This document shows positions 161 to 16,687 of a stretch of 37,665 bases of DNA, one piece after another. The position numbers and the translations under genes are program-made. The DNA is from a virus, in IMG/VR virus record IMGVR_UViG_3300045988_106261, positions 1 through 37,665 of that record. One strand, written 5' to 3'. The notes beneath the pieces are model-generated. The model was not told the origin of the DNA. It saw nothing but the letters and a program-made list of their open reading frames with translations, and searched no databases. The first letter of the stretch is position 1; the number at the start of each line of letters is the position of its first letter.

Positions 161-1294
161 TCACCCTTGAGCCTTCCTGAATGCAGCGGTGGTCGCAGCC
201 GCCAAATCTTCACGCTGGCCGTCCAGCTCGTGGCGGTAAACCCCTGCGGTATCCATGTTCTTGCTGTGGCCTACCAGCATTTTCAGTTGGCTGTCGGTCA
301 GCACGCCGGACTCGACGCTGACGAACGTATGCCGCATCTCATACAGCGTAACCTGTGGCTCAATTCCGTTATCCTTCTGGTACTTCTTCCAGCGCTTGAA
401 TAAAGCCCTCTGGTTCGGAATCTGGAACAAAGGGGTGGTATAGTTCAGCGGGATACCGGAAGCCTTCAGCAAGGCCACCTGCGCTTCGTATGCCTCACGG
501 GCTTCCTTCCCCATGTCGAACGAACGAATAGCGTTTTCATTCTTTCCGGTGGTTTCTTCATCCATCCGGTTGATGCTGCGGCGCAGATTGACGGTGTTCC
601 CCTTAATGTCGCCGTACCAGAGCCCCACAAGCTCCCCCGGGCGTACACCTGTAGCCACCGTAAAACGATAGGCATAAATATATTCGTCAAAGACTCGCTT
701 TCCATAGTAAAGGCGGCTATCCACGTCAAACAGGATTTTCAATGCAGATGGCTGTAAGATATTTTTCTTCCCCATCCGGGCATTCTTCGGGATCGACAGC
801 TCAGGGAACAGGGCGCTGTACTTGTTCCGGCGGCACCATTTCACAAAGCTGATTTCTGTCGAGCGGATCGTCATAAGGGTTTTGCGGCTCAGAGGTTTGT
901 CACTCGTGCGCTTTCCCCCTTTTTTGAGGCAGCGCTTTTTGAAAGACATGTCAATCGCCTTTTGCAGATCGCCCTCGGTCAGCTCGTCGATGCGGATGTT
1001 CCCACACACCGGGAGAATGTAGTATTCGCCGTATTTGTTGCACTGGATCACATAGGACGTGCCGCAGGTCAGCTTCAGCTCTTCCACCCACTCGGCATAG
1101 AGCGTGGCCACCTTCTTCCTGCCGTCCCGGATGCTGTCATCAAGCCATGCATCCGCTTTTGCGTTTGCTTCACGCTGGCCGGTGCGGCCGGGTGTGCTGC
1201 TGTAAAACCGCTTGCGGGTGCCGTTCTTCTGCACCGCGATGCACCAGCGCTTTTCCTTTTCTACCCAAAATGCCGTGTTGACTCGTTTTTTCAT
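161..1294 (-). CDS. int: Tyrosine-type site-specific integrase
   Basis: A 378-aa ORF starts at ATG 1292-1294 (rc), preceded by GGAGGTG (rc of 1301-1307) with a 6-nt spacer. The ORF-track extension to 1411 has no RBS. Tyrosine-recombinase signature is visible: GVRPGELVGL, LYEMRHTFVS, LVGHSKNMDTAGVYRH (catalytic R, H/R and Y). The gene is adjacent to attL. Confidence 0.95.
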   Translation of the reverse strand: MKKRVNTAFWVEKEKRWCIAVQKNGTRKRFYSSTPGRTGQREANAKADAWLDDSIRDGRKKVATLYAEWVEELKLTCGTSYVIQCNKYGEYYILPVCGNIRIDELTEGDLQKAIDMSFKKRCLKKGGKRTSDKPLSRKTLMTIRSTEISFVKWCRRNKYSALFPELSIPKNARMGKKNILQPSALKILFDVDSRLYYGKRVFDEYIYAYRFTVATGVRPGELVGLWYGDIKGNTVNLRRSINRMDEETTGKNENAIRSFDMGKEAREAYEAQVALLKASGIPLNYTTPLFQIPNQRALFKRWKKYQKDNGIEPQVTLYEMRHTFVSVESGVLTDSQLKMLVGHSKNMDTAGVYRHELDGQREDLAAATTAAFRKAQG

Positions 1295-1451: not shown

Positions 1452-1490
1452 CCCGTCCATGTTCCAGCATGGGCGGGAGTTTTTATTTTT
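1452..1490 (+). terminator. Second intrinsic-terminator-like hairpin, T-run on plus strand
   Basis: CCCGTCCATG (1452-1461), loop ttccag, CATGGGCGGG (1468-1477) form a 10-bp stem with one G-U pair, followed by TTTTTATTTTT (1480-1490). The stop codon of the minus-strand gene 1483-2391 lies inside this run. Confidence 0.55.
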
Positions 1491-2391
1491 GAGCCAGATC
1501 AAACAGATATGCGCTTGCTTCTCCAAGCTCAGACTTCTGGCCGTCTGTCATGTAAGGCAAATACGGTTCAAATGCCTGATGATATTTTTCGGCCCAGTTC
1601 TGTTTCGCCTTTGCTGTTTTCAGGCCCTCGATTTTTGCCTGATACTTTTCTTCTGTACGGTGAATGATTTCCTTTACAGCATCATCCCGGAAGCCAAGGC
1701 TGCGATACTTCTTCAAATCAGCTGTAGCGCTTACCGGTGCACCGTACTTTTTGCACTTTTCAAGTTCCATCAAGCGTCCAACGCAAAAATCATATCTTGT
1801 AAAAAAGGTGGCGGGGTCCGTGGTCGTCTGAAGGATTTTGGCGCTTTCCTGAGCCTGCTTCAGAAACTGTGGAGCCAAGACCCTTGCATTCGCACGAGAA
1901 TCCACAAGGCCAGTCTGCCCCATCCATTCAGGATTAGGAGAGTAGAGTTGCGCAGGCTCATTCACTTCATTTACGTTTTCTTCTGTCATGCAGCTTTGCT
2001 TTGCATTGCATTTCGATCTCGGACGAGTAATGGTATTGAACACCATAAAAATCAAAACCATTATAAAGAACGGAATCGTAAAGAAGAAGAACAAGACCAG
2101 CAGAAGCATTCCTGTTGTTCCTGTTGTTTCTGTTGCCGCGCCCTTTCCAACTAGAAACATAGTTGGAAGAATTGCCCCCACAACACACGAAGCAATCAAT
2201 TGTTTGTTCGTAAGGCTGGTTCTTTCCCAGCTGTCAGAGGTTGTGCCGATATTCTGCCGACTTCTTCCCCGTTTTGCTTGACCGAAAGCCACGCGCGAGA
2301 CAGCGTTGGTCGTTCTGGTCACGCTCCTATCAAAGGACTTCATGGTCTGGGCATACTTTTTGGAATGCCCAACAGATTTTCTACTTGACAT
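1483..2391 (-). CDS. Two-TM membrane protein of unknown function, in the lysogeny operon downstream of the repressor (candidate superinfection-exclusion protein)
   Basis: A 302-aa ORF starts at ATG 2389-2391 (rc) with GGAGAGGAG RBS (rc of 2398-2406). Two hydrophobic segments are present (LIASCVVGAILPTMFLV and MLLLVLFFFFTIPFFIMVLIFMVF), followed by a soluble domain of about 170 aa. It lies 19 nt downstream of the repressor stop on the same strand. I recognise no family. Confidence 0.7.
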   Translation of the reverse strand: MSSRKSVGHSKKYAQTMKSFDRSVTRTTNAVSRVAFGQAKRGRSRQNIGTTSDSWERTSLTNKQLIASCVVGAILPTMFLVGKGAATETTGTTGMLLLVLFFFFTIPFFIMVLIFMVFNTITRPRSKCNAKQSCMTEENVNEVNEPAQLYSPNPEWMGQTGLVDSRANARVLAPQFLKQAQESAKILQTTTDPATFFTRYDFCVGRLMELEKCKKYGAPVSATADLKKYRSLGFRDDAVKEIIHRTEEKYQAKIEGLKTAKAKQNWAEKYHQAFEPYLPYMTDGQKSELGEASAYLFDLAQK

Positions 2392-2410
2392 GACAGACTC
2401 CTCTCCAACA

Positions 2411-3043
2411 TCATATATCCCGGCAGAGCCCCACGGCCTTGCCTTCAATGACAACGGCATTCATATCTTCCCGGCTGAGGATGATGCTGCTGAAAGCCGG
2501 ATTTTCCGGCCGCAGTTCAATGAAGTTCTCGTGCAGATAGACATGCTTCAAGGTAGCTTCTTCTCCGATCCGCACAGCAGCAATCTCGCCGTTCTCTACC
2601 TCCGGCTGGCTGCGAATTGCCACCAGATCACCGTCGTGGATGCGGGGCTCCATGCTGTCGCCCTTGCAGGTCAGCGTAAAGGTGGAGTGCCAGCGGGAAG
2701 GCACACAAACCATCTGCTCTACATTTTCTTCCGCCGTGATGGGCGTCCCGCAGGCGATCCGGCCTACCAGCGGCACCCAGTCCATCTCCGGCATAGGCTG
2801 GAAGCCCGGCGGAATAGGGCGGGAGGTCGTAGCAGCGGGCGCATCATCCACAATTGCACTTTTGGGGATGCCGAAATAATTTGCCATCTTCTCTACAGCA
2901 CCCATGCGCGGAATTTTCGTTCCGAGTTCCCATGTGGACACCGCTTTGTCACTGACGCCTGCAATCTTGCCAAGTTCAGCCTGTGACAGGCCGTGCTCCA
3001 ATCGGATTTTTTTAATATTTTCAGCGATGCTCAATTGAATCAC
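2411..3043 (-). CDS. CI/LexA-like prophage repressor (XRE-type HTH plus S24 autopeptidase domain)
   Basis: The N-terminus has the HTH IRLEHGLSQAELGKIAGVSDKAVSTWELG. The C-terminus is S24-like with KGDSMEPRIHDGDLVAI (catalytic Ser) and EATLKHV (Lys). The track start is GTG 3043. AAGGAG (rc of 3044-3049) abuts it, so TTG at 3032-3034 (8-nt spacer) is a plausible true start. Confidence 0.92.
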   Translation of the reverse strand: MIQLSIAENIKKIRLEHGLSQAELGKIAGVSDKAVSTWELGTKIPRMGAVEKMANYFGIPKSAIVDDAPAATTSRPIPPGFQPMPEMDWVPLVGRIACGTPITAEENVEQMVCVPSRWHSTFTLTCKGDSMEPRIHDGDLVAIRSQPEVENGEIAAVRIGEEATLKHVYLHENFIELRPENPAFSSIILSREDMNAVVIEGKAVGLCRDI

Positions 3044-3056
3044 TCCTTATATGTAG

Positions 3057-3085
3057 AGATTACACCAAAAGTAGAAAATTGTCAA
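3057..3085 (-). promoter_or_regulatory. Candidate repressor-maintenance promoter (leftward)
   Basis: On the minus strand: TTGACA (rc of 3080-3085), 17 nt, TAATCT (rc of 3057-3062). The -10 is weak. The predicted transcript start falls almost on the repressor RBS. An operator-like site overlaps the spacer. Confidence 0.45.
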
Positions 3086-3137
3086 CATTCAACCAAAAAT
3101 TTTCTACTTTAAGTTCTTGACATTCTACTAAAAGTGG
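3065..3137. promoter_or_regulatory. Three operator-like sites sharing the TCTACT half-site in the switch region
   Basis: TCTACTAAAAGTGGA (3124-3138 region, between -35 and -10 of the rightward promoter). TCTACTTTAAGTTCT (3103-3117). Inverted copy AGTAGAAAA (3070-3078, rc TTTTCTACT). All approximate TCTACT-N3-AGTAGA. Confidence 0.6.
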
Positions 3138-3145
3138 AGTATAGT
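3117..3145 (+). promoter_or_regulatory. Early rightward promoter (PR-like)
   Basis: TTGACA (3117-3122), 17 nt, TATAGT (3140-3145). It faces the cro-like gene and an operator-like site occupies its spacer. Confidence 0.75.
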
Positions 3146-3178
3146 GTTCTCAAGCCAAAAATGAAAGGAGGTGTAAGT

Positions 3179-3379
3179 TTGGGATTCACCGTTAAACAAG
3201 CCCGCCAGTACGCTGGTTTCACGCAGCGTGAAATGGCGGAAAAGCTTGGCATTTCGCGCGATACATACCGCAAAATCGAGCAGTCGCCCGAATGTGCCAC
3301 TGTCGCCACTGCGAAAAGAATCAGTGAGGTCGTCGGCATCTCGATTGACCAAATTTTTTTCGCCAATAAGTCTACTTAA
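3179..3379 (+). CDS. Cro/XRE-family HTH regulator
   Basis: HTH VKQARQYAGFTQREMAEKLGISRDTYRKIE. The likely start is TTG 3179, 7 nt after GGAGG (3167-3171). The track start GTG 3134 lies upstream of the predicted -10, so it would not be transcribed. ATG 3161 is an alternative start without an RBS. Confidence 0.85.
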   Translation: MGFTVKQARQYAGFTQREMAEKLGISRDTYRKIEQSPECATVATAKRISEVVGISIDQIFFANKST

Positions 3380-3387
3380 AGTAGACT
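3369..3387. promoter_or_regulatory. Perfect 19-bp palindrome carrying the operator motif (distal operator candidate)
   Basis: AGTCTACTT-A-AAGTAGACT contains a perfect TCTACT-TAA-AGTAGA. It straddles the cro stop codon (3377-3379). Confidence 0.5.
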
Positions 3388-3418
3388 ACGCAAGTTCATT
3401 CAATGGGAGGTGAACAAG

Positions 3419-3583
3419 ATGAAAATTGAAATCACTGGTGAGCCCAAAGAAATTGCCGCTCTTGTACTGGCGGTACAAGAGCGGCAACCACAGAGCGCTT
3501 TAGTTCCTAAACGAGTGATTGAAGGTTCCGTCAATGCGGATCACGCAGTGACCTCAAATAATTCAGTAAAGGACTTCGGGTGA
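3419..3583 (+). CDS. Small hypothetical early protein (54 aa, below the ORF-track cut-off)
   Basis: ATG 3419 is preceded by GGGAGGTG (3405-3412). It translates to MKIEITGEPKEIAALVLAVQERQPQSALVPKRVIEGSVNADHAVTSNNSVKDFG. Its 3' end overlaps the convergent gene 3563-4210 by 21 nt. Confidence 0.5.
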   Translation: MKIEITGEPKEIAALVLAVQERQPQSALVPKRVIEGSVNADHAVTSNNSVKDFG

Positions 3584-4210
3584 TGTAATCCATTCTGTTC
3601 CGGAGCTTTGAATCACCAAAACATCACATGCTTCGCTAACAGTTTGATTCATTTGAGCGTAATGCTGAAGTCCTGCGACTGACCGGGTTAAAAAACGAAG
3701 ATAGTCAATAGATTCCTGCAGTGGAAACGCATTGTAATCCACCGGAAACATATCCGTCAACTTAATCACAGTATCTGATTCCCCTGAAAATGCAAGACAT
3801 TTTTCATCCTTCGTATGCTCTGTAATTTCATCCGTTGTCAACGAAGATGAAAGGACACGATTTTTTCCGTCACAAATAGCCGCACCTATAAGGATCACAT
3901 TTCGTCCATTTGCAAATGCTTGAAGCTCTTTTTTGACTGACAGAATCTCATCCTCAAGGGAAAGGCACTCTTCTAGCTGTGCAAGGGTTTTGCGAATAAT
4001 GCAGGCTGTACGTCGTCCACCTGCTAACGATGAGGCTCCTGTATAGGAAATTCCGTGTCCTGCCTTCGTAAGAAAAAGCTTTTGTTCATGCTCTGTTAGG
4101 ACGAAGGATTCCGTCTCATTTGTTTCGGACCGAGTCACCGTTGTTGTTATTCTTCGGTCCGCAGACATCACAATTCCGTATTGATTTGCCAAAGTTATTG
4201 CAAGCGACAT
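3563..4210 (-). CDS. Hypothetical protein with Ntn-hydrolase/proteasome-beta-like N-terminus (cassette gene 2)
   Basis: A 215-aa ORF starts at ATG 4208-4210 (rc) with a GGGAGGTG RBS. The track extension to 4357 runs through the upstream terminator and promoter. The N-terminus M-SLAITLANQYGIVMSADRRITT and KLFLTKAGHGISYTGAS resemble proteasome-beta/HslV strands. The region is AT-rich. Confidence 0.6.
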   Translation of the reverse strand: MSLAITLANQYGIVMSADRRITTTVTRSETNETESFVLTEHEQKLFLTKAGHGISYTGASSLAGGRRTACIIRKTLAQLEECLSLEDEILSVKKELQAFANGRNVILIGAAICDGKNRVLSSSLTTDEITEHTKDEKCLAFSGESDTVIKLTDMFPVDYNAFPLQESIDYLRFLTRSVAGLQHYAQMNQTVSEACDVLVIQSSGTEWITSPEVLY

Positions 4211-4235
4211 TATATTTTCACCTCCCTTCCACCCC

Positions 4236-4264
4236 AGTATACCGCAGAAGGGAGAACACCACAA
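4236..4264 (-). promoter_or_regulatory. Candidate promoter for cassette gene 2
   Basis: Minus strand: TTGTGG (rc of 4259-4264), 17 nt, TATACT (rc of 4236-4241), about 25 nt upstream of the start codon. Confidence 0.45.
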
Positions 4265-4283
4265 GGAGGCGAACAACATGGAC

Positions 4284-4327
4284 AACAACAAAAAGCCCAG
4301 CGAACCTGCGGAAGAGGAACGCTGGGC
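4284..4327 (-). terminator. Intrinsic terminator between the two cassette genes
   Basis: GCCCAGCG (4295-4302) pairs with CGCTGGGC (4320-4327), with an inner CCT/AGG extension. On the minus strand it is followed by CTTTTTGTTGTTG (rc of 4284-4295 region). It lies 34 nt after the upstream gene's stop. Confidence 0.55.
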
Positions 4328-4360
4328 GCTGAAATTCTTAGCTAAGTGATCAACCAAAGA

Positions 4361-5194
4361 TCAGATATCGAAGCAAACACTAACAAAAGTTTTTCCAAGC
4401 GGTGTCAACCGGACAATTCCCTTATCAAAGTCCAGTGATTGCACTTTTCTGTCATTGATCTTTGCTTCGCAGGCTTTCATTTGGAGCAACTCGCTTTCCA
4501 ATATATCTCTCAGTTCATTTTTGATAAATACGTCATACAATTTCTCATCCAACAGCCAACAGTCATAGCGAATTTCTATCAACCCTTGTCGTTCCAATGA
4601 ACTTAAAGATGTGGCTTGAAGGTTGATGTCTGTGGCATGAATCATCTTAGGGTTCTTTAAAAAACAATTTGTAAACGCAGCGCTTTCGCCGTCGTTCTCC
4701 AGAGTGTATTTATACCTTGCAATCGGAAGAGTTCGATCGCCTTTGAACAGTTCCAAATTTTCAGCGTCCAAAGGAGACATCTGCGCAATCATAGCCGAAA
4801 AGGAAGGATGCACCTGACTTTGATATCTTATATCGGCAGAATTTGCAAGCAGATTTTGAAACATCTTTCGGATTTGTGGCTCGTCCATGCAAAATTTTGC
4901 ATTTTCGACAGCGGGGCCAACCACCTGCATACGAGGTTCAACCAAGCATTCTGCTGGTTTTGCATTCAACTTGTCACTCAGTGATTTTTTAAACTCTTCT
5001 AAATCATGTGCTTGTTGCAACCTCATCTTTTCTGCTGAAAAATGGATTTTGCTTGTTGCCATTGCAAGAAGATCTCCAAAAAGAGTTCCAATCTGATTAG
5101 CACCGGGGTTCAGAACAGCCTTTACAGGTTCGTCAATGCAACTTGGTACGGCATTGATGTTAAAGGTGTTGCCGCTATTCTTCTCATCACTCAT
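4361..5194 (-). CDS. Abi_alpha/DUF4393-like protein (cassette gene 1, abortive-infection-associated family)
   Basis: A 277-aa ORF starts at ATG 5192-5194 (rc) with a purine-rich RBS AAAGAAAGGAA. Motifs MFQNLLANSAD and VHPSFSAMIAQMSPLDAENLELF match my recollection of the Abi_alpha (PF14337) core. The start at 5224 or 5275 is less likely because there is no RBS and they lie upstream of or at the predicted transcript start. Confidence 0.65.
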   Translation of the reverse strand: MSDEKNSGNTFNINAVPSCIDEPVKAVLNPGANQIGTLFGDLLAMATSKIHFSAEKMRLQQAHDLEEFKKSLSDKLNAKPAECLVEPRMQVVGPAVENAKFCMDEPQIRKMFQNLLANSADIRYQSQVHPSFSAMIAQMSPLDAENLELFKGDRTLPIARYKYTLENDGESAAFTNCFLKNPKMIHATDINLQATSLSSLERQGLIEIRYDCWLLDEKLYDVFIKNELRDILESELLQMKACEAKINDRKVQSLDFDKGIVRLTPLGKTFVSVCFDI

Positions 5195-5246
5195 CTTATC
5201 ATTCCTTTCTTTGGGAGGTTCCATGGACAAACTTATTCTGATTATA

Positions 5247-5275
5247 AAAATACTCGTCACTGAGCAGAAAGTCAA
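5247..5275 (-). promoter_or_regulatory. Candidate promoter of the minus-strand cassette
   Basis: Minus strand: TTGACT (rc of 5270-5275), 17 nt, TATTTT (rc of 5247-5252). Confidence 0.55.
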
Positions 5276-5359
5276 ATTTTATACAGCAGTCTGCCGTGTG
5301 TGCGAAAGAATCGAACGTTATATTGAAATTCATCGAAAATAAGGAGGTACATATTCACC

Positions 5360-5677
5360 ATGAACGACTTGACCACATTCACTAATCCCGAGTTCGGGCA
5401 GGTGCGCATCGTCGAGATTGACGGCACACCGTGGCTCGTCGGCAAGGACGTTGCCGTGGCGCTGGGGTACAAGAATCCCCAGCGTGCTATCCGCGACCAT
5501 GTTGACGCCGAGGACAAAGGGGTGACCAAAACAGTCACCCCCTCCGGTGAGCAGGAAATGCTCATTATCAACGAGTCCGGTCTGTACAGCCTGATCCTGA
5601 GCAGCAAGATGCCCAAGGCCAAGGCTTTCAAGCGCTGGGTGACCAGCGAGGTGCTGCCCGCCAAGAAGGAGGAATAA
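5360..5677 (+). CDS. BRO-N domain antirepressor-like protein
   Basis: FTNPEFGQVRIVEIDGTPWLVGKDVAVALGY...AIRDHVD...LIINESGLYSLILSSKMPKAKAFKRWVTSEVLP is the typical Bro-N pattern. RBS is AAGGAGG (5341-5347). Confidence 0.88.
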   Translation: MNDLTTFTNPEFGQVRIVEIDGTPWLVGKDVAVALGYKNPQRAIRDHVDAEDKGVTKTVTPSGEQEMLIINESGLYSLILSSKMPKAKAFKRWVTSEVLPAKKEE

Positions 5678-5678
5678 A

Positions 5679-5942
5679 ATGTTGAACCCATCAACCATTC
5701 GCGGCACTTTCAAGCAGATCCCATACTGGAAACTGCGGGGACGGTTCCACAGCTGTGGCTACCGCGATCAGGAAGTGGCCGAGTACATCGGCATTGGCCG
5801 GGACACCATGAGCGGCAGGATGCAGGGGCACAACCCGTGGACAAGCACGGAGATCACTGCAATGTGCGAGCTGCTGGGTATCCGGCAGAATGAAATCGGG
5901 GAGTATTTCTTCCCGCGTGTCGAGAAAGGAGAATCCGCATGA
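5679..5942 (+). CDS. DUF739-like phage HTH protein
   Basis: YWKLRGRFHSCGYRDQEVAEYIGIGRDTMSGRMQGHNPWTSTEITAMCELLGIRQNEIGEYFF follows the DUF739 pattern (KLRGRI ... W ... EI ... LL.I ... I..YFF). RBS is AAGGAGGA. Confidence 0.75.
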   Translation: MLNPSTIRGTFKQIPYWKLRGRFHSCGYRDQEVAEYIGIGRDTMSGRMQGHNPWTSTEITAMCELLGIRQNEIGEYFFPRVEKGESA

Positions 5943-6202
5943 AGATCAAATCCGGCGTATGGTACTGGCTGGCCGTGGCCAGCGGGGCCGTGGGCCTGCT
6001 GTACGGCATGGGGCTGGAGGGCAGCTTCCAGACCGGCGGCACCGTCTCGGACGGCGCGTTCATCACGGCCATGGTGTTGATCCTGCTGGCGGTGTTCTTT
6101 GCCCGGCTGGGCTTTGCCGCCCATGACCGGGAGCAGCAGGAGCGCCGCAAGGTGCACCAGCAGCCCCGGAACACCGTGAAGAGCAGCAGGAAGGCAGGCT
6201 GA
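5939..6202 (+). CDS. Small membrane protein (2 predicted TM helices), unknown function
   Basis: The ATGA start overlaps the upstream stop. Hydrophobic segments are VWYWLAVASGAVGLLYGM and AFITAMVLILLAVFFARLGF, followed by a basic tail. Confidence 0.7.
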   Translation: MKIKSGVWYWLAVASGAVGLLYGMGLEGSFQTGGTVSDGAFITAMVLILLAVFFARLGFAAHDREQQERRKVHQQPRNTVKSSRKAG

Positions 6203-6204
6203 GC

Positions 6205-6534
6205 ATGAGCGATTTCAAGACCTACACCCGCATCTGCGTGGACTGCGGCAAGGTGCTTAACAATGTCGGGCGCTCCGCTCAGCGCTGCCCCGAATGCGGC
6301 AAAAGGCACGCCAACGCTCAGAGCCTTGAATGGGATCGTCGGCGCAATGAAGAACTGCAGGCCCGGCGTCAGGGCCTTGCCGCTGAGCGCAGCAGCCTTG
6401 CCCTTCACGCCGAGGTCCGCGCCGCCGAAAAAGCCGGCCTGAGCTACGGCAAATACATGCTGCTGAAAATGCAGGCAAACAAAAAGCCCGCCGGTGCGCC
6501 AACACCGACGAGCCCAAAGGGTGATGGAATTTGA
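6205..6534 (+). CDS. Zinc-ribbon protein, unknown function
   Basis: CVDCG...17 aa...CPECG forms a four-Cys ribbon, followed by a charged helical region. It is tightly packed in the early operon. Confidence 0.7.
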   Translation: MSDFKTYTRICVDCGKVLNNVGRSAQRCPECGKRHANAQSLEWDRRRNEELQARRQGLAAERSSLALHAEVRAAEKAGLSYGKYMLLKMQANKKPAGAPTPTSPKGDGI

Positions 6535-6578
6535 AAGCCCCATCACCCCGATGATATCACAAAATCGGAGGTTTTACA

Positions 6579-6893
6579 ATGAAAGGAATTTTGATCGAAC
6601 CGGGCAAAGAGCCGGTAGTCACCACCCTGCCGGACAGCCTGTGGGCCATTGAAAACCGGCTGGGCACCCGCAGTGAGATGATCGTGCTGCCCCGCACCCC
6701 GGCGGTGCTGTTCGTGGGCCGGTACGATGGCCCCATCCAGCCCGCCAGCCTGCTGAACCGGACATACCGGGGCCGTCAGCTTTACGGGCCCATCCTCTGC
6801 TATGGCTGGAAGGGCAACAACATCCAGCCCATGAGCAAGGATGTGCAGGCCGAGATGCTGGACCGCCTCAAGGACACGGAGGTGCGGGTATGA
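6579..6893 (+). CDS. Hypothetical early protein (weak DUF3846-like resemblance)
   Basis: RBS is GGAGG (6567-6571). The ORF is 104 aa and its stop overlaps the next start (ATGA). The family call is only a weak pattern impression. Confidence 0.65.
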   Translation: MKGILIEPGKEPVVTTLPDSLWAIENRLGTRSEMIVLPRTPAVLFVGRYDGPIQPASLLNRTYRGRQLYGPILCYGWKGNNIQPMSKDVQAEMLDRLKDTEVRV

Positions 6894-8719
6894 CTACCTA
6901 TATCTGCAAATGCGGACGGCGAGTGAAGAAATCCACCGATGCCAGTACCACTGGCAACCGTCTGTCTGGCTATGCACCCGGCCATGAGTGCTGGGGATGC
7001 CCCTACGCCATGCCATACGGAAACTTTCAATGGGACGAAAGTGCCAAAACTGTCGCCCTGGAGACTCGGGGCTATGAGTGTCGGATGAGCAAGACTCTCA
7101 CTTATGCATCAGAATTCTCTGGCTCCATCAAGGACAAATGCACCTGTCGAGTGCACAGTTTGGACTTCGACTTTTTGTCTCAGGTCTCCGCATGGATCAA
7201 AGATACTTATCCAGACAGAGAGATTTTTGGCTCGTTTTCCAAAGATATTCGTGCATCGGACTATGGATCTGATGGCCGTTACTGCCTGACTATCACCTGC
7301 GCTCAAAATCTGAAAGGTGTTGCCGCAAAAAGAGAGCTGCTTGGTCAGTTTTTTACCCCGAATGGCAGCCGCAAGGACATGACACCGCAGCAGGAAATGG
7401 AAAAGATTCTTGCCGACATTAAAAAAGCAAAGGAGGTTTTCGCATGTGCACCTGCCCAGAATGCGGATGCTGCTGTGACTACGGCAGAGAATGCTGTCCC
7501 GACTGCCACAGCGGCAACGCCGACCACCTCGGAGAGCGGGGCGGATGCAAGCGCATCGACCCCCGCGACATCCCTGCAGAACTGCGAATCGGTCCCTGCC
7601 GCATCGGCGGGCGGTTCTTCTGCGTCGATGCCTTCGGCACCCGGTTTTGACTTTTCCGCTCTGGGCGAGCTGTCCGAACAGGCCGTGGAGACCGATCAGC
7701 AGTTCGATCTGCACTACGGCACCGCACAGGATGAATACCTCATTTCCTGCATCTACGTTGCCAAAATGCACGCCCTGACGGCCAAGGCTGGCCGCTATGG
7801 CGGCGGTACATGGACAAAGTGGTATGAGAGCAAGGGCATGAGCAAATCCAGCGTCTGGAATATGCTGCAAACAGGTGAAGGTTTTAAAGGTTCAACTGTT
7901 GAACAATTAACTTCAATCCCTGAACTTTCTCGCAAGGACCTGAACCTGATTGCCCGCTCCGGCTGCGCCGAACAGCTCACCGCAGCCGCCGGAGACAACC
8001 AGCGGGTGCAGGAGCTGCTGGCCCAGCTCAAGGCCGAGAAAGACCGTGCCGACACCGCCGAAAAGTCCGCTCAGAACGCCCGCAAGGAAAATGCCTATTT
8101 CAAGGAGCTGGTGAAAAGCGCCGAAGCCCAGACCCATAAGGACGCAGAAAAGCGGGAAGAAGCAGAAAGCCGCTACGAATCCGCTCTTGCCGACATCAGC
8201 GGCCTGAAAGAGCAGAACGCCCAGCTGAAAGAGCGCGCCGACTCTGCCGAAGCCCGGGAAGAGGAAGCATGGAAGATGCAGAGCAAGGCCGAGGCCCGGG
8301 CCAAAAATGCCGAGGGCCAGCTTTCCGGCTCCCGGCAGGTGGCCGAAGCGGCCAAGCTCCGTGCCGACAAGTTGCAGGAAGAAAATGCGGCCCTGAAAAA
8401 GCAGCCCATCGCTGCCGTGGTGGACGAGGAGGAAGTGGAGCGCCGGGCAAACCAGCGAGCCCATGATATCGCCACCGACCTTGCCGCCGAGATGACCGCC
8501 GACCTGCAGGCGCGGCTGGAACAGGCCTCTTCCGGCAGCGAACAGGACGCCCGCGATGCCTACGACAGCATCATTCTGGCCGGGCGCTCCATCACAAGCA
8601 TCGTTCAGTCCGCCAAAATGCAGTTCCGCAAACTGCCGGACGACCAGCGGGAGACCGCGATCAACCAGTTCGTTCACACACTCGCATCCGCTCAAGGGGA
8701 GGTATCCGCATGTCTGTAA
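6890..8719 (+). CDS. Large multidomain early protein: Cys-rich N-domain, low-complexity linker, DUF3102-like HTH region, long coiled coil
   Basis: 609 aa. The N-terminus has CKCG...CWGCP...C.C. An Ala/Ser/Thr/Pro linker covers about aa 195-250. GGGTWTKWYESKGMSKSSVWNMLQ resembles DUF3102 (GEW..W). The C-terminal ~230 aa are rich in E/K/A/Q heptad-like repeats. Confidence 0.65.
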   Translation: MTTYICKCGRRVKKSTDASTTGNRLSGYAPGHECWGCPYAMPYGNFQWDESAKTVALETRGYECRMSKTLTYASEFSGSIKDKCTCRVHSLDFDFLSQVSAWIKDTYPDREIFGSFSKDIRASDYGSDGRYCLTITCAQNLKGVAAKRELLGQFFTPNGSRKDMTPQQEMEKILADIKKAKEVFACAPAQNADAAVTTAENAVPTATAATPTTSESGADASASTPATSLQNCESVPAASAGGSSASMPSAPGFDFSALGELSEQAVETDQQFDLHYGTAQDEYLISCIYVAKMHALTAKAGRYGGGTWTKWYESKGMSKSSVWNMLQTGEGFKGSTVEQLTSIPELSRKDLNLIARSGCAEQLTAAAGDNQRVQELLAQLKAEKDRADTAEKSAQNARKENAYFKELVKSAEAQTHKDAEKREEAESRYESALADISGLKEQNAQLKERADSAEAREEEAWKMQSKAEARAKNAEGQLSGSRQVAEAAKLRADKLQEENAALKKQPIAAVVDEEEVERRANQRAHDIATDLAAEMTADLQARLEQASSGSEQDARDAYDSIILAGRSITSIVQSAKMQFRKLPDDQRETAINQFVHTLASAQGEVSACL

Positions 8720-10038
8720 AGATCATGGCCTTAGAGGCCGAAAACGTCAAACGCATCAAAGCCGTTGCACTCACGCCGTCGCCCACCGGGCTCACCATCG
8801 TGGGCGGCAACAACAATCAGGGCAAGACCAGCGTGCTGGATGCGCTGGCGTGGGCCCTCGGCGGCGACAGATTCCGCCCGGACGCCGCCCAGCGGGACGG
8901 GGCCGTGGCTCCCGCCCACCTCAAGGTCAGGCTCTCCAATGGCGTGGTGGTGGAGCGCAAGGGCAAGAACAGCACCCTGACCGTCACCGACCCCACCGGA
9001 CGCCGCAGCGGCCAGCAGCTGCTCAACGCCTTTATCGAGCCGCTGGCGCTGGATCTGCCCCGCTTCATGGAAGCGTCCGACAAGGAAAAGGCGGACATCC
9101 TGCTGCGGATCATCGGCATCGGCACCGAACTCCACACCCGGGATCTTGAGATCAAGGCCCTGTACGACAAGCGCACCTTCACCGGCCAGCTGGCCGCGCA
9201 GAAAAAGCACTTTGCCGAGGAGCTGATCTCCTACCCGGACGCACCGGAGAAGCCGGTCAGCGCCTCCGACCTCATCCGTCAGCAGCAGGAAATTCTGGCC
9301 CGCAACGGCGAGAATCAGCGCAAGCGCCAGCAGTTCCATGAACTGGCCCGTCAGAGGGACGAAGCTATGGCCGAGATGCACCGTCTGGATGAACGCATCG
9401 CCGAGCTGACTGCCCAGCGGGACGAAGTGAGCAAGAAGCACACGCTGCTGTTCACGCAAGCCATGGATGCCAACAAAACGGCAGAGCAGCTTCAGGACGA
9501 ATCCACCGCCGAACTGGAAGCTTCCATCCGGGACATCGAAGAGACCAACCGCAAGGTGCGGGCCAATCTGGAAAAATCCCGGGCCGAGGACGAAGCCGCC
9601 CGGTATGCCAGCGATTACGACAAGCTCACCGAAGCCATCACCCGGAAACGGGCCGACCGCATGGCCCTGCTGAACGGTGCCGACCTGCCCCTGCCGGAGC
9701 TGAGCGTGGAGGACGGCGCCCTTACCTATAAAGGCAAGCACTGGCGGGATATGTCCGGCAGCGACCAGCTGCGGGTGGCCGCGGCCATCGTCCGCCGCCT
9801 GAACCCGGACTGCGGTTTTGTGCTGCTGGACAAGCTGGAACAGATGGACATGACCACCCTGCAGGAGTTTTCCGCATGGCTGGAAGCAGAACACCTGCAG
9901 GCCATTGCCACCCGGGTCTCCACCGGCTGCGAGTGCCAGATCATCATTGAGGACGGCATGGTGAAGGATGCCGAAACCACCCTGCCGCCCGTCACCGAAA
10001 AGCCCCAGCAGAAGAGCTGGACGAAAGGAGCGTTTTAA
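8710..10038 (+). CDS. SMC/RecF/SbcC-like AAA ATPase with inserted coiled coil
   Basis: Walker A is GGNNNQGKTS near the N-terminus. A central coiled coil covers about aa 170-300. The C-terminus has FVLLDKLEQMD (Walker B-like). RBS is GGGGAGG. This is typical of Firmicutes phage recombination modules. Confidence 0.8.
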   Translation: MSVKIMALEAENVKRIKAVALTPSPTGLTIVGGNNNQGKTSVLDALAWALGGDRFRPDAAQRDGAVAPAHLKVRLSNGVVVERKGKNSTLTVTDPTGRRSGQQLLNAFIEPLALDLPRFMEASDKEKADILLRIIGIGTELHTRDLEIKALYDKRTFTGQLAAQKKHFAEELISYPDAPEKPVSASDLIRQQQEILARNGENQRKRQQFHELARQRDEAMAEMHRLDERIAELTAQRDEVSKKHTLLFTQAMDANKTAEQLQDESTAELEASIRDIEETNRKVRANLEKSRAEDEAARYASDYDKLTEAITRKRADRMALLNGADLPLPELSVEDGALTYKGKHWRDMSGSDQLRVAAAIVRRLNPDCGFVLLDKLEQMDMTTLQEFSAWLEAEHLQAIATRVSTGCECQIIIEDGMVKDAETTLPPVTEKPQQKSWTKGAF

Positions 10039-11121
10039 ATGAGCAAGTATGCCATCACCGCCGGGGTACAGGATTCCCCGGTCAAGACCGTGCTGTACGG
10101 CCCGGAGGGTATTGGCAAATCCACCTTTGCCTCTCACTTTCCGGACCCCGTATTCATCGACACCGAGGGCGGCACCAAGCGGCTGAACGTCAAGCGCCTG
10201 CCCCAGCCCACCAGCTGGGCCATGCTGCTGGACGAGGTGGCCGAGGTGCGCAAGGGCAGTATCCCCTGCGGCACGCTGGTCATCGACACCGCCGACTGGG
10301 CTGAACGGCTGGCCATTGACGCCGTCTGTGCCAAGGCCAAGGTGGACGGGCTGGAGGGCTTTGGCTACGGCAAAGGCTACACCTACCTGAAGGAGGAGTT
10401 CGGCAAGCTGCTGGACGCGCTGGAAGAGGTGCTGAACACCGGACACAATGTTCTGATCCTTGCCCACGCGGCCATCACCAAGTTCGAGCAGCCGGACGCG
10501 GCGGGCAGCTACGACCGCTGGACCATGAAGACCACCAAGCAGGTGGAGCCGCTGATCCGGGAGTGGTGCGATATGCTGCTTTTCGTCAACTACCAGACCG
10601 TAGTGGAAAAGAGCGGCAGCGCCCCCAACGCAAAAAACAAGGTGACCGGCGGCCGCCGGGTCATGTACACCACCCATCACCCCTGCTGGGACGCCAAAAA
10701 CCGCTTTGGCCTGCCGGACGAAATGCCATTTGATTATGCCGGCATTGCCGCCTGCATCCCCGGCACCACACCTGCACCCGCACCGCAGCCGGAGCCGCGT
10801 CCCCAGCCGGAAGCCGACATCCTGCCCAGCCCGCAGGCGCAGCCGGAGCCGCCGCAGCCGGAACCGCCCGCCGAGACGGTGCCCAAAGCCCTGCTGGTGC
10901 CCGACCTGATCGCGTTGGGTGTGCCGGAAAAGCTGGCCCCGCTCATGAGCGCCAACAACGTCACCCCGGAGGAGCTGCAGGCTGTGGTGGGCAAGCGGGG
11001 CTATTTCCCCGAGGATATGCCCATCCGGGACTACCCGGCCGATTTCGTAGAGGGCTGTCTGGTGGCCGCATGGCCCCAGGTGCTCCAGATGGTGCTGGAC
11101 AGCCGTGACCTGCCGTTTTAA
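10039..11121 (+). CDS. AAA_24 / Sak4-like RecA-fold ATPase with Pro-rich linker and C-terminal extension
   Basis: LYGPEGIGKSTFA (Walker A) and LVIDTADW (Walker B-like). The repeat PAPAPQPEPRPQPE...PQAQPEPPQPEPP lies at about aa 250-285. The protein ends in ...DSRDLPF. Confidence 0.8.
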   Translation: MSKYAITAGVQDSPVKTVLYGPEGIGKSTFASHFPDPVFIDTEGGTKRLNVKRLPQPTSWAMLLDEVAEVRKGSIPCGTLVIDTADWAERLAIDAVCAKAKVDGLEGFGYGKGYTYLKEEFGKLLDALEEVLNTGHNVLILAHAAITKFEQPDAAGSYDRWTMKTTKQVEPLIREWCDMLLFVNYQTVVEKSGSAPNAKNKVTGGRRVMYTTHHPCWDAKNRFGLPDEMPFDYAGIAACIPGTTPAPAPQPEPRPQPEADILPSPQAQPEPPQPEPPAETVPKALLVPDLIALGVPEKLAPLMSANNVTPEELQAVVGKRGYFPEDMPIRDYPADFVEGCLVAAWPQVLQMVLDSRDLPF

Positions 11122-11230
11122 GGAGCCAACCCTCTCACCGGGCCCGTCCGCCTTGCGGCGGCGCAGCCCCGGAGCTCCCCCCGAAGGGGGAGCCAAGAAT
11201 CAAGGAATTATTATAAAGGAGACTTTACTT

Positions 11231-11719
11231 ATGAATGACATGAACACCACCGACCGCGCCCTGAGCTGGGACGACGAATTTACCAACGAACAGCAGGAGT
11301 TCGTGCTCCTTCCCGAGGGCGATTATGCCTTTGAGGTCACCGGCATGGAACGTGCCCGCTTTGAGGGCAGCGCCAAGCTGCCGCCCTGCTCCATGGCAAA
11401 GCTAACCCTGAAGATCTTCGGCGGGGCCAAGGGCGACACCACCGTCACCGACCGCCTGTACCTGCACACCAAAACGCAGGGCCTGCTGGGCGCTTTCTTC
11501 GAGAGCATCGGCCAGTGCAAGCGCGGCGAGACCTTCCGCCCCCGCTGGAACGAAGTGGTGGGTGCCCGGGGCTGGTGCCGTCTGGGCATCCGGGAGTACA
11601 CCAAGCAGAGCGGCCCTCATGCAGGCGAGACCGGCCAGAGCAACGAGGTGCAGCGCTTCCTGCCGCCGCCGGAACCCAAGGCCGCACCCACTCAGGGCTG
11701 GACGCAGGGGGCATTCTGA
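11231..11719 (+). CDS. DUF669-like phage protein (SSB-like accessory of Sak4 modules)
   Basis: ATG 11231 follows AAAGGAG (11215-11221). The upstream part of the track ORF (from 11105) is a GC-rich hairpin region. LPEGDYAFEVTGME...AKLTLKI resembles DUF669. The position between the AAA_24 protein and the helicase is typical. Confidence 0.65.
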   Translation: MNDMNTTDRALSWDDEFTNEQQEFVLLPEGDYAFEVTGMERARFEGSAKLPPCSMAKLTLKIFGGAKGDTTVTDRLYLHTKTQGLLGAFFESIGQCKRGETFRPRWNEVVGARGWCRLGIREYTKQSGPHAGETGQSNEVQRFLPPPEPKAAPTQGWTQGAF

Positions 11720-13344
11720 TGGGGCAGGAACTGAGACCCTACCAGCAGCAGGCCCGTGAACGCATCCACGCCGAGTGGGAGAACGGCCACACCCGCACCC
11801 TGCTGGTGCTGCCCACTGGCACCGGCAAGACCATCGTGTTTGCGTCCGTGGCCGCCGATCAGGTGCGGGCGGGCCACCGGGTGCTTATTCTGGCCCACCG
11901 GGGCGAGCTGCTGGAACAGGCAGCGGACAAGCTGCAGCGCTCCACCGGCCTTGTCAGCGCCGTGGAAAAGGCAGACGCCACCTGCCTGAACACATGGTTC
12001 CGGGTGGTGGTGGGCAGCGTGCAGACCCTGCAGCGCACCGCCCGGTTGGAACGCTTCCCTCATGATTACTTTGGCACCATCATCATTGACGAGGCCCACC
12101 ACGCCATCACCGACGGCTACCGCCGCATCCTCGACTACTTCGGCAGCGCCAAGGTGCTGGGCGTCACCGCCACCCCTGACCGGGGCGACATGCGCAATCT
12201 GGGCGAGGTGTTCGACAGCCTTGCCTTTGAGTATAAGCTGACCGATGCCATCAAAGAGGGCTATCTGTGCCGCATCATGGCCCAGACCATCCCCCTGAAG
12301 CTGGACATTTCTTCTGTCACCATGAGCGGCGGGGACTACGCCGTGGGAGACCTCGGCACTGCGCTGGACCCCTATCTGGAACAGATCGCCGCCGAGATGG
12401 CCCAGCGCTGCAAGGGCCGCAAAACAGTCGTATTCCTGCCCCTCATCAAGACCAGCCAGAAGTTCCGGGACCTGCTGAACGCCAAGGGCTTCCGTGCCGC
12501 TGAGGTCAACGGCCAGAGCACCGACCGCCGCGAGATTTTGGCCGACTTTGATGCCGGGAAGTACAACGTGCTGTGCAACTCCATGCTGCTCACCGAGGGC
12601 TGGGACTGCCCGTCTGTGGACTGCGTGGTGGTGCTGCGGCCCACCAAGGTGCGCAGCCTGTACAGCCAGATGGTGGGGCGCGGCACCCGGCTCTCCCCGG
12701 GCAAGACCGACCTGCTGCTCCTCGATTTTTTGTGGATGACCGACAAGCACGAGCTCTGCCGCCCGGCGGATCTGGTCTGCGAGGACCGCGCCGTGGCCCG
12801 CCAGATGACCGAAAATCTGGCCGGGAGCGGCTGCCCGCAGGACATCGAGGAAGCCGCCGCCGAGGCCAGCGAGGACGTGGTGACCCAGCGGGAGGAAGCC
12901 CTTGCAAAGCAGCTGGAAGAACAGCGCCGCAAAAAGGCCAAGCTGGTGGACCCCCTGCAGTACGAGATGAGCATTCAGGCCGAGGACCTTGCCGGGTATG
13001 TGCCGGCCTTTGGCTGGGAAGCAGGCCCGCCCACCGAACAGCAGGCCGCCGCGCTGGAAAAGCTGGGCATCCTGCCGGACGCCGTGGAGTCGGCAGGCAA
13101 GGCCAGCCTTTTGCTGGACCGGCTGCACAAGCGCCGGGACGAAGGCCTCACCACCCCAAAGCAGATCCGCTGTCTGGAAAAATACGGCTTCCAACACGTG
13201 GGCAGGTGGAGCTTCGAGCAGGCCAAACACATGATCGACCGCATTGCGGCGGGCGGCTGGCGGGGTGTGCCCAAGGGCGTTACCCCCAGCACCTACACGC
13301 CGCCCGCAGAACCGGCCTTTCCGGATAGCAGCTTTGGATGGTGA
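11719..13344 (+). CDS. Superfamily-2 DEAD/DEAH-type DNA helicase
   Basis: The start ATG 11719 overlaps the upstream TGA (TGATG). Motifs: LPTGTGKT (I), IIIDEAHHA (II), GVTATPDR (III), QMVGRGTR (VI). The track ORF from 11515 is an out-of-gene extension. Confidence 0.9.
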   Translation: MGQELRPYQQQARERIHAEWENGHTRTLLVLPTGTGKTIVFASVAADQVRAGHRVLILAHRGELLEQAADKLQRSTGLVSAVEKADATCLNTWFRVVVGSVQTLQRTARLERFPHDYFGTIIIDEAHHAITDGYRRILDYFGSAKVLGVTATPDRGDMRNLGEVFDSLAFEYKLTDAIKEGYLCRIMAQTIPLKLDISSVTMSGGDYAVGDLGTALDPYLEQIAAEMAQRCKGRKTVVFLPLIKTSQKFRDLLNAKGFRAAEVNGQSTDRREILADFDAGKYNVLCNSMLLTEGWDCPSVDCVVVLRPTKVRSLYSQMVGRGTRLSPGKTDLLLLDFLWMTDKHELCRPADLVCEDRAVARQMTENLAGSGCPQDIEEAAAEASEDVVTQREEALAKQLEEQRRKKAKLVDPLQYEMSIQAEDLAGYVPAFGWEAGPPTEQQAAALEKLGILPDAVESAGKASLLLDRLHKRRDEGLTTPKQIRCLEKYGFQHVGRWSFEQAKHMIDRIAAGGWRGVPKGVTPSTYTPPAEPAFPDSSFGW

Positions 13345-15584: not shown

Positions 15585-15619
15585 ACAATCCGTAATAAGT
15601 CAGATTACAATTTGTTGTA

Positions 15620-15750
15620 AAAATGCAGAAATAGCCGCTATTTTGCACGACACGAAAAACTGCAATTTTGCAGTTATAGCCGCTATGACTGCAGATTTTG
15701 CAGTGCAAAATAGCCTATATATAATAGCTAAAACTGCAACTGCAATTGTG
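15620..15750. repeat. AT-rich iteron/palindrome cluster (candidate phage replication origin)
   Basis: ATAGCCGCTAT occurs twice (15631-15641, 15676-15686), with a degenerate ATAGCCTAT at 15710-15718. These are interleaved with TGCA-N-TTTTGCA elements (15660-15673 CTGCAATTTTGCAG, 15689-15703 CTGCAGATTTTGCAG, 15733-15747 ACTGCAACTGCAATT). The cluster lies directly downstream of the primase/helicase gene in a 273-nt non-coding gap. Confidence 0.5.
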
Positions 15751-15857
15751 ATGGGGTCTCCCGAAGGATGGGGCGACCACAGCCCCCATCCATTCGGGGA
15801 ACCCTCCCCATCACGTTGGCGCTAAAACCTAAAAAAAAGAAAAACGAGGTGAACCCC

Positions 15858-16268
15858 ATGTACATGCAATTCTTTCTCCCCATGCAGCCGCCCACCACCA
15901 CCCACAACGCAAAGCAGCTGCACGCCTACATGAAGGGCGGGCAGCCGCACGCGGTGCTCCACGACAGCCCGGAACTGAAACAGACCCGTGCCAAGCTCCA
16001 CGCCCATCTGGCACCCCACGCGCCGGAAAAGCCCATCCCCGCAGGCCGTCCGGTGCGTCTGCTGGTCAAGTGGTGCTTCCCTGCCGAGGGCCGCAAAAGC
16101 GGCAGCTGGCGCACCGCAAAGCCGGACACCGACAATCTGGAAAAGGCCCTCAAGGACGAAATGACCCGCCTGCACTTCTGGGCCGATGACGCGCAGGTGT
16201 GCAGCGAGATCGTGGAAAAATTCTGGTCGGACCCCTGCGGCGTGTTCGTCCGGGTGGAGGAACTGTAA
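15858..16268 (+). CDS. rusA: RusA-family Holliday junction resolvase
   Basis: ATG 15858 follows GAGGTG. KPDTDNLEKALKDEMTRLHFWADDAQV is the RusA catalytic Asp pattern. 136 aa. Confidence 0.85.
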   Translation: MYMQFFLPMQPPTTTHNAKQLHAYMKGGQPHAVLHDSPELKQTRAKLHAHLAPHAPEKPIPAGRPVRLLVKWCFPAEGRKSGSWRTAKPDTDNLEKALKDEMTRLHFWADDAQVCSEIVEKFWSDPCGVFVRVEEL

Positions 16269-16687
16269 TGACCTACGAAGAGAAAAAGGCATGGCTCTGG
16301 CGGTACCGGACGGCCAAGCGGTTCGAGCTGCTGCGGCTGGACGAGCTGGCCACGCTGCAGACCGACGCCACCCACACCACCCAGCGCTTTTCCCCTGTGC
16401 CGGGCAGCAGCGGCGACGGACAGGCTCTGCCCCGCAGTGTGGAACGCATCGACGAGGCCCGCCGGGCCGCTGAGGCACAGTCTGCCGTGTGCGATGCCAT
16501 CCGGGCCGAGATCATGGAGGTGTTCCGCCAGCTGGACGATGAGGTGGATTTCATGATCCTGTTCCGGCGGTACATCCTTCTGGAGGACTGGCCGGACATC
16601 GCGGTCAACGTCCGCATTTCCCGCAGCCAGATGTTCCAGCGCCACAGCGCGGCCATCAAAAGACTGGAGATCAAAAGTCCGGACTGA
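16268..16687 (+). CDS. Sigma-70 region-4-like phage late-gene regulator (DUF1492/RinA/ArpU-type)
   Basis: The start ATG overlaps the rusA stop (TAATG). The C-terminus ILFRRYILLEDWPDIAVNVRISRSQMFQRHSAAIKRLE is a region-4-type HTH. The N-half has YR......L..EL..L and SPVPGSSGDG, as in DUF1492 proteins. It is the last gene before the packaging operon. Confidence 0.7.
   Translation: MTYEEKKAWLWRYRTAKRFELLRLDELATLQTDATHTTQRFSPVPGSSGDGQALPRSVERIDEARRAAEAQSAVCDAIRAEIMEVFRQLDDEVDFMILFRRYILLEDWPDIAVNVRISRSQMFQRHSAAIKRLEIKSPD

Follow-up and report, generated by a model that had tools for sequence, protein, structure and literature searches.

The locus described here raises the question of whether two neighbouring, counter-oriented genes of a gut phage act together as one defence system or are separate cargo that happens to be stacked. 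The stretch of DNA analysed, hereafter the window, comprises the 37,665 nucleotides of IMG/VR record IMGVR_UViG_3300045988_106261, and its source is a Lughvirus-like temperate Faecalibacterium phage or prophage. Faecalibacterium is a key gut commensal, and its phage-defence repertoire is poorly known. Gene 1 (4361-5194, minus strand) and gene 2 (3563-4210, minus strand) are located to the right of the genetic switch, between cro and a Bro-N gene. An earlier note had read the pair as one horizontally acquired cassette, a candidate two-gene defence system combining an Abi_alpha (DUF4393) protein with a proteasome-like putative peptidase of the N-terminal nucleophile (Ntn) type. Both open reading frames (ORFs) are as that note gave them, with starts at 5194 (MSDEKNSG...) and 4210 (MSLAITLANQYGIVMSADRR...) and with the quoted peptides present. 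Our analysis shows that the architecture is very probably that of two independent cassettes, with gene 1 being Abi-alpha and gene 2 a proteasome-like Ntn hydrolase. What gene 2 does is a separate matter, which is taken up below.

Each gene occurs without the other

One line of evidence comes from a sibling phage in IMG/VR (L024), which is ~98% identical in the flanks and in which window positions 3406-4269 are joined straight to 5341-5368. This sibling lacks precisely the 1.07-kb Abi block, and the junction lies in AAGGAGG, a 7-bp direct repeat (plus strand) that flanks the block in the window at 4263-4269 and 5341-5347. Gene 2 without an Abi_alpha gene was found in nine contigs at 99% identity (L024 and L158-L165), in a 95% copy from a Faecalibacterium metagenome-assembled genome (L065), and in all eight displayed contexts of a homolog with 69% identity (P0007, a protein indexed in 201 blocks of the collection). 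In L158-L165, L065 and the P0007 contexts, the solitary gene has the region and the counter-orientation that it has in the window. The reverse was also observed. Seven IMG/VR contigs (L185-L191) carry the Abi block without gene 2, at 97-98% DNA identity and 98-99% protein identity, and these blocks share their ends, at window positions 5368 and 4260/4263. Among 50 Abi_alpha loci, only one, in a Lacrimispora prophage, has a homolog of gene 2. A 71% homolog of gene 1 (P0223), for which the collection indexes 2109 blocks, occupies the same prophage region; the two ORFs that follow it (123 and 108 aa) are unrelated to gene 2.

Two candidates for a disguised partner were considered and rejected. 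The 123-aa and 108-aa ORFs located 3' of the 71% Abi_alpha homolog do not represent a split gene 2, the hhalign probability being below 1%. The zinc-ribbon proteins encoded upstream of distant gene 2 homologs are not divergent Abi_alpha proteins: they gave zinc-ribbon matches only, and are also found without gene 2.

These comparisons delimit two mobile units, both unstranded. The Abi-alpha cassette (4263-5368) consists of a promoter-like site, the gene and a terminator; it is absent in L024 and stands alone in L185-L191. The Ntn cassette (3406-4269, 864 bp) consists of a promoter-like site, the gene, a terminator and a small-ORF boundary. Positions 3406-4269 are the sole stretch that the window has in common with L065 (93% identity) and with L016 and L025 (70-71%), and they are shared with L024 at 98%.

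The signals between the genes were examined as well. A terminator-like hairpin with a T-run, GCCCAGCG...CGCTGGGC, lies at 4283-4327 on the minus strand, where the earlier note had seen one. Its RNA fold of -23.3 kcal/mol corresponds to z = -3.3 relative to shuffles, and it would be expected to end the abi-alpha transcript. Further downstream on the same strand are the promoter-like site TTGTGG-17-TATACT (4236-4264) and a strong ribosome-binding site (RBS), GGGAGGTG, which was found 5' of gene 2 at 4219-4226 as had been claimed. A terminator, a promoter-like site and a strong RBS separate the two genes, and a second terminator lies 3' of gene 2 (3487-3446); in silico, the pair does not present itself as a single transcription unit. 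The TTGTGG-17-TATACT site is kept in every cassette copy without abi-alpha, with the alignments of L024, L065 and L016 extending to 4269-4280.

We have rejected the proposal of one cassette holding a two-gene system because the sibling phage lacks only one of the genes, because both genes occur alone, because their signals are separate, and because Abi-alpha suffices by itself. The neighbour analysis revealed no co-conservation, and each gene is found alone at 95-99% identity. We suggest that 3406-5368 represents two separate single-gene morons stacked in an insertion hot spot just 3' of cro, each equipped with a promoter-like site, an RBS and an intrinsic terminator. As each moron is transcribed against the lytic genes, expression from the prophage would be possible.

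Gene 1 belongs to the Abi-alpha family

Gene 1 encodes a 277-aa protein of the abi-alpha family, a single-gene abortive-infection candidate. It matched Pfam PF14337 (Abi_alpha/DUF4393) with E=1.1e-42 and 146.7 bits (cutoff 29) over profile positions 2-196 of 196, PADLOC PDC-S47 (PDLC05025) with E=3.6e-47, and phrog_2232 with E=5e-57. That gene 1 is Abi_alpha, as first recognised by eye, is upheld by the hidden Markov model search, in which the match is full-length and above the curated threshold, and by the PADLOC match. An AlphaFold2 model was poor (predicted local distance difference test, pLDDT, 47.6) because the 12-sequence alignment behind it was too shallow, and it was not used.

What the family does is known from ef2833 of Enterococcus faecalis V583 prophage 6. 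When cloned alone on a plasmid, this gene caused a Picovirinae phage to be met by abortive infection, in which the cells lysed prematurely, and Abi-alpha was reported to be widespread in Gram-positive prophages (PMC6356687). In a phiNM1 lysogen, 42% of prophage protein was a DUF4393 protein, more than any other. Like ef2833, gene 1 is prophage-borne, lies in the lysogeny region, encodes ~270-280 aa, is a single gene and matches the family model at full length; it differs in host phylogroup (Faecalibacterium). Gene 1 is a new member of an already known single-gene abortive-infection system, with an activity presumed by homology. Most likely, it would abort infection by superinfecting phages through premature lysis, acting alone as ef2833 does. 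Premature lysis is the sole mechanistic observation for this founding member.

Upstream of gene 1, the promoter-like site TTGACT-17-TATTTT (5247-5275, minus strand) lies inside the Abi block, which phages either carry or lack as a whole. The promoters proposed in the earlier note held up in part: this first site was detected by the scanner with 9 of 12 matches, and the second, TTGTGG-17-TATACT, is there to be read in the sequence but falls below the scanner threshold.

At the other end of the cassette, AAGGAGG is followed by an ATG at 4280 that opens a 23-codon plus-strand mini-ORF (MDNNKKPSEPAEEERWALKFLAK; window 4263-4351), which overlaps the abi-alpha terminator. The start of this mini-ORF resembles that of a 49-aa ORF, MENHKKPSW... 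(L009 6709-6858), located at the end of a counter-oriented gene block that holds a 71% Abi homolog. In view of this resemblance, the design of a terminator inside a small forward ORF seems to be repeated for each moron.

Gene 2 encodes a stand-alone proteasome-like Ntn hydrolase

Gene 2 encodes a 215-aa proteasome-beta-like protein with a predicted Ser1 nucleophile. Its AlphaFold2 model reached a pLDDT of 92.7 and a predicted template-modelling (TM) score of 0.89, and all of the top 50 Foldseek matches in the PDB are 20S proteasome subunits (best E=1e-8; probability 1.0; TM 0.54-0.67, normalised to the query). A 111-sequence family profile matched proteasome beta chains among PDB sequences with E=5.6e-7, pairing Asp18 and Lys44 of the family with Asp17 and Lys33 of the proteasome; this alignment begins at profile position 3, and the placement of Ser2 on Thr1 follows from the register. 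The narrow-family profile gave just non-significant matches among PDB sequences, to proteasome alpha subunits (E ~0.2). When the distant family members were searched individually, 14 of the 111 matched Pfam Proteasome (PF00227; best E=5.8e-6) and seven matched the N-terminal model of connectase. The proteasome/Ntn profiles that the earlier note proposed for searching gave matches in some of these distant relatives but not in the gene 2 protein itself. The wider claim, an Ntn fold of proteasome type in which Ser replaces Thr1, is borne out by the agreement of structural model, conserved residues and family profile.

Close homologs of gene 2 fall into 30 clusters, and an exhaustive profile search retrieved 662 cluster representatives (50% identity, E<=1e-3), nearly all of which start with M-S-[LFIV] or M-T. 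In a 21-sequence alignment of the close family, M1, S2, G12, I13, A17, D18, R19, K44, F46, G58, G143 and C195 are invariant; the 111 distant members all keep K44, and S2, D18 and G58 are each kept in at least 90% of them. Numbered from the residue after Met, the key positions are Ser1/Asp17/Lys43/Gly57, which correspond to Thr1/Asp17/Lys33/Gly47 of the proteasome with a 10-residue insertion. Gene 2 has no propeptide. Judging from the specificity of methionine aminopeptidase, this enzyme would remove Met1 and expose Ser1 as the catalytic nucleophile, and the protein would presumably be made in the lysogen.

How does gene 2 compare with known proteasome-like proteins? It shares with 20S proteasome beta subunits and HslV (PF00227) a predicted alpha-beta-beta-alpha sandwich, equivalents of Asp17, Lys33 and Gly47, and the same Lys-to-Gly spacing of 14 residues. 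As in HslV, the nucleophile directly follows Met. It differs in having Ser for Thr1 and ~10 extra residues, modelled as a beta-hairpin, between Asp and Lys. An HslU-like AAA+ unfoldase was not found among the immediate neighbours in the displayed gene tables of the narrow family; for the broad family, the 25 Pfam families most frequent in 99 flanking ORFs did not include one either. Connectase is a monomeric proteasome-like enzyme with an N-terminal nucleophile; it is archaeal and tied to methanogenesis. The family profile matched connectase (MJ0548; PF09894) in PDB entry 6zvz with E=0.001 over residues 1-34, and the likeness to the gene 2 family is confined to the N-terminal strands.

The best match in BFVD, A0A8S5LJV3 (Siphoviridae sp. 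ct3o911; 37% identity, TM 0.91), is auto-annotated 'Proteasome beta type-2 subunit', so that the fold assignment pre-exists in databases with no function attached. A tblastn search of a cultured-phage database with gene 2 gave zero matches, and a one-genome-per-species collection yielded only two loci. The wider family extends to Bacteroidota, with one Parabacteroides member.

Fuchs, Alva and Lupas (2021) catalogued 22 orphan proteasome homologs, including FC1-FC5 of Firmicutes (represented by WP_075525441.1, WP_000217171.1, WP_098409529.1, WP_076223917.1 and WP_106036939.1) and the phage-borne PPH and AAH; no function was found for the catalogued homologs, and their gene context was uninformative (PMC8665760). 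Like gene 2, the catalogued homologs are of bacterial or phage origin, have diverged, conserve Thr1/Ser1, Asp17 and Lys33 and lack an AAA+ partner, whereas the moron context and hot-spot architecture of gene 2 are not described there. Gene 2 is a new, uncharacterised member of a known proteasome-homolog superfamily in a previously undescribed context. While Abi-alpha is already known, the context of the Ntn gene is new: it places one orphan proteasome homolog concretely in a lysogen-oriented, self-contained unit of 864 bp that includes its own signals.

Possible functions of gene 2

We argue that gene 2, expressed in the lysogen, could serve as a peptidase or amidase in conflicts between phages, cleaving a protein of the incoming phage or, once triggered, a host protein. 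We put this somewhat short of an even chance, and a function in defence or superinfection immunity is likewise tentative. The suggestion of a conflict role comes from the consistent moron placement of the family and from the defence-type neighbours of its distant members. The gene 2 family is counter-oriented in two distinct phage modules, switch and tail, and its presence is polymorphic. Sister phages have Abi_2, RhuM, DUF4145 and Abi_alpha genes in the region around the switch, between integrase and early genes. The 99 ORFs flanking distant members include five to seven type I methyltransferases, four HsdS, three RES and two OLD/AAA_21 proteins, together with integrases and a terminase, which suggests that distant Ntn family members are embedded in defence loci.

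It is conceivable, if unlikely, that gene 2 is a new single-gene anti-phage or superinfection-immunity effector, which gut temperate phages carry as a self-contained moron, and that its distant relatives embedded in type I restriction-modification (R-M) loci and in further loci of defence type play the same part in bacteria. Our literature search found no paper linking proteasome-like or Ntn proteins to phage defence. If true, gene 2 as an immune effector would mean that an enzyme of the proteasome family had for the first time been assigned to antiviral immunity in prokaryotes; the upside of this locus depends wholly on the stand-alone Ser1 proteasome homolog turning out to be such an effector.

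Alternatively, gene 2 could be an accessory enzyme of the phage or of lysogeny outside defence, for example a protease that cleaves regulators of the phage or its host, or an amidase with a small molecule of the gut as its substrate, and thereby contribute to lysogenic conversion. Ntn hydrolases act on highly diverse substrates, which would leave room for such a role. The idea is further favoured by PADLOC, whose models matched none of the 111 family members, by the position of gene 2 next to the genetic switch in Faecalibacterium phages, and by the uninformative gene context of the catalogued proteasome homologs (PMC8665760). However, the family sits in the tail module of other phages, so that a switch-specific regulatory role is unlikely; its structural matches are proteasome subunits and not Ntn families of the acylase or amidase type; and its distant members adjoin R-M, RES and OLD genes. 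We regard the accessory role as doubtful.

The distant members are longer (230-260 aa), carry the motif EGIVMA[AS]DSR ... TVGGPIDILVI, and often lie beside type I R-M methyltransferase or specificity genes, RES, Trypsin_2 or OLD/AAA_21 genes. Example loci of this broad family are L079, L091, L094, L095, L113 and L151, for which the neighbours are given collectively and not locus by locus.

A small convergent ORF marks the boundary of the hot spot

Could gene 2 have a partner on its other side? A small ORF of 54 aa (3419-3583, plus strand; Shine-Dalgarno sequence GGAGGTG) lies 3' of cro, is convergent with gene 2 and overlaps its 3' end. The small ORF is found tail-to-tail with gene 2 in 59 of the 69 narrow-family loci, including those of phages that carry the gene in the tail module. 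None of the 89 broad-family loci has it. The first 23 residues of the small ORF (MKIEITGEPKEIAALVLAVQERQ) are nearly invariant across ~350 protein clusters with unrelated C-termini, which suggests that cassette exchange occurs just after codon 23. The same N-terminus also adjoins counter-oriented morons without gene 2, namely ORFs of 141, 324 and 61 aa, Abi_alpha and a zinc-ribbon protein.

Within this ORF lies a predicted strong intrinsic terminator for the gene 2 transcript (3446-3487, minus strand), with the stem TTGCCGCTCTTGTAC / GTACAAGAGCGGCAA followed by TTTCTTT. The 15-bp stem is perfect, the fold of the 90-nt segment is -34.9 kcal/mol, and the stem is kept in L016, L025, L166 and L172 through G-U or compensatory changes. 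The small ORF is dual coding in that its codons 10-23 (…KEIAALVLAVQERQ), when read from the other strand, are the hairpin and T-run that would terminate transcripts of counter-oriented morons.

We considered whether the small ORF is the true partner of gene 2, a lytic-cycle antidote that switches it off when its own prophage is induced. The high frequency of the pairing, in clades spanning 37-99% Ntn identity and in both switch and tail modules, and the constant co-orientation of the small ORF with lytic genes would agree with this idea. Yet the 23-aa N-terminus is joined to unrelated C-termini and stands beside counter-oriented morons that lack gene 2, the small ORF is missing from the broad-family loci, and the conserved codons encode a perfect terminator hairpin on the opposite strand, which explains their conservation without a partnership at the protein level. 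An antidote function is improbable, and the loci without gene 2 and the embedded terminator argue against a dedicated partner. The simplest reading is that the small ORF marks a boundary common to the hot spot and at the same time supplies the terminator of the moron, although its peptide may have a role at the protein level. With each counter-oriented moron ending in a terminator that lies in the first codons of a small ORF on the forward strand, and with cassette junctions at Shine-Dalgarno-like AAGGAGG repeats, the hot-spot architecture would explain how morons are swapped in these Faecalibacterium phages.

A second hot spot for counter-oriented morons was seen in the tail modules of other gut phages (L001-L004, L005 and L177-L184), between the tape-measure gene and one that encodes a tail protein of very large size. 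Genes for double zinc-ribbon proteins (171-220 aa) are found there, in some cases together with the Ntn gene, and the flanks consist of retropepsin-like Asp_protease_2 ORFs and members of the small-ORF family described above.

Points against two independent morons

Several observations weigh against the picture drawn so far. In a prophage of Lacrimispora xylanisolvens, an Abi_alpha-like gene (32% identity) is located directly upstream of a gene 2 homolog (39%); since the pair is adjacent there, a loose functional affinity between the two families is possible. This prophage (L066 4015-5500; DSM 3808, NZ_PTJA01000016) is the same as that in L064 and L214. Promoter-like sites in the region number 6 as compared with 3.7 +/- 1.6 in shuffles and are not enriched, which makes the promoter calls weak by themselves. 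The gene 2 protein had zero direct matches in Pfam (E<=1), PADLOC, PHROG and NCBIfam, and its homology to the proteasome at the sequence level is drawn from the family profile and from distant members. Expression and phenotype of either gene in this phage are predictions from the DNA. Finally, the defence role of gene 2 is suggested by guilt by association, with counts taken over neighbouring loci that may not be independent.

The Lacrimispora copy of gene 2 is internally deleted and split (5001-5216 plus 5276-5500) with the Abi gene intact, and P0049, the closest intact relative of that copy, has no Abi neighbour. A further protein (P0028, ENA assembly, 216 aa) is an in-frame chimera of Abi-alpha 1-157 and Ntn 156-215, which arose either by a deletion within the stacked arrangement or through an error of assembly.

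That Abi_alpha and Ntn proteins work jointly, for instance with the Ntn hydrolase processing or activating Abi-alpha or the reverse, is very improbable: the two genes are adjacent and co-oriented in the window, the gene order recurs in Lacrimispora, and the chimera would attest the stacked arrangement in at least one other assembly in destroyed form, but the cassette boundaries are sharp, ~60 further Ntn loci and 49 further Abi loci lack the partner, the one Lacrimispora prophage being the sole exception, transcription signals intervene, the Lacrimispora pair is itself broken, and Abi-alpha is sufficient alone on a plasmid. Where morons are stacked in a prophage hot spot, adjacency says little about whether two genes work together.

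Genomic setting of the two morons

By megablast, the phage sits beside the cultured Faecalibacterium phage FP_Lugh, with 86% identity across window positions 2413-16461. FP_Lugh has neither the Abi nor the Ntn cassette, and has zero counter-oriented genes at the corresponding position. In the window, plus-strand ORFs starting with ATG are tightly tiled rightward from 5360, beginning with the Bro-N early gene (5360-5677, plus strand) and a DUF739 early gene (5679-5942, plus strand). The claim that genes 1 and 2 are the sole minus-strand genes to the right of the switch fits this tiling and the annotation of FP_Lugh.

The two cassettes also stand out in composition. The guanine-plus-cytosine (GC) content is 0.411 in 4270-5340 and 0.444 in 3406-4269, as compared with 0.61 (standard deviation 0.04) in 5341-37665, and each of the two values is under the minimum of all same-size windows in the remaining phage. 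The AT-rich stretch noticed earlier is real in this sense. Low GC continues leftward across the cro and switch region (3044-3405, GC 0.42). The view of the two genes as horizontally acquired, counter-oriented morons agrees with their low GC, with their presence or absence among near-identical phages, and with the lack of both in FP_Lugh.

To the left, the switch consists of a CI-like repressor with helix-turn-helix (HTH) and Peptidase_S24 domains (2411-3043, minus strand) and a Cro-like HTH protein (3134-3379, plus strand). The lysogeny module begins at the left end of the window with a tyrosine integrase (161-1294, minus strand). Between integrase and repressor lies a gene for a 325-aa protein (1483-2460, minus strand) with predicted hydrophobic segments and a GC content of 0.49 at third codon positions, for which the sole profile match was DUF6773, below threshold. 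In sister phages (L009, L012 and L016), the same slot is taken by an Abi_2, RhuM or DUF4236-exonuclease protein; on this ground, the slot may be a third site for morons or defence genes.

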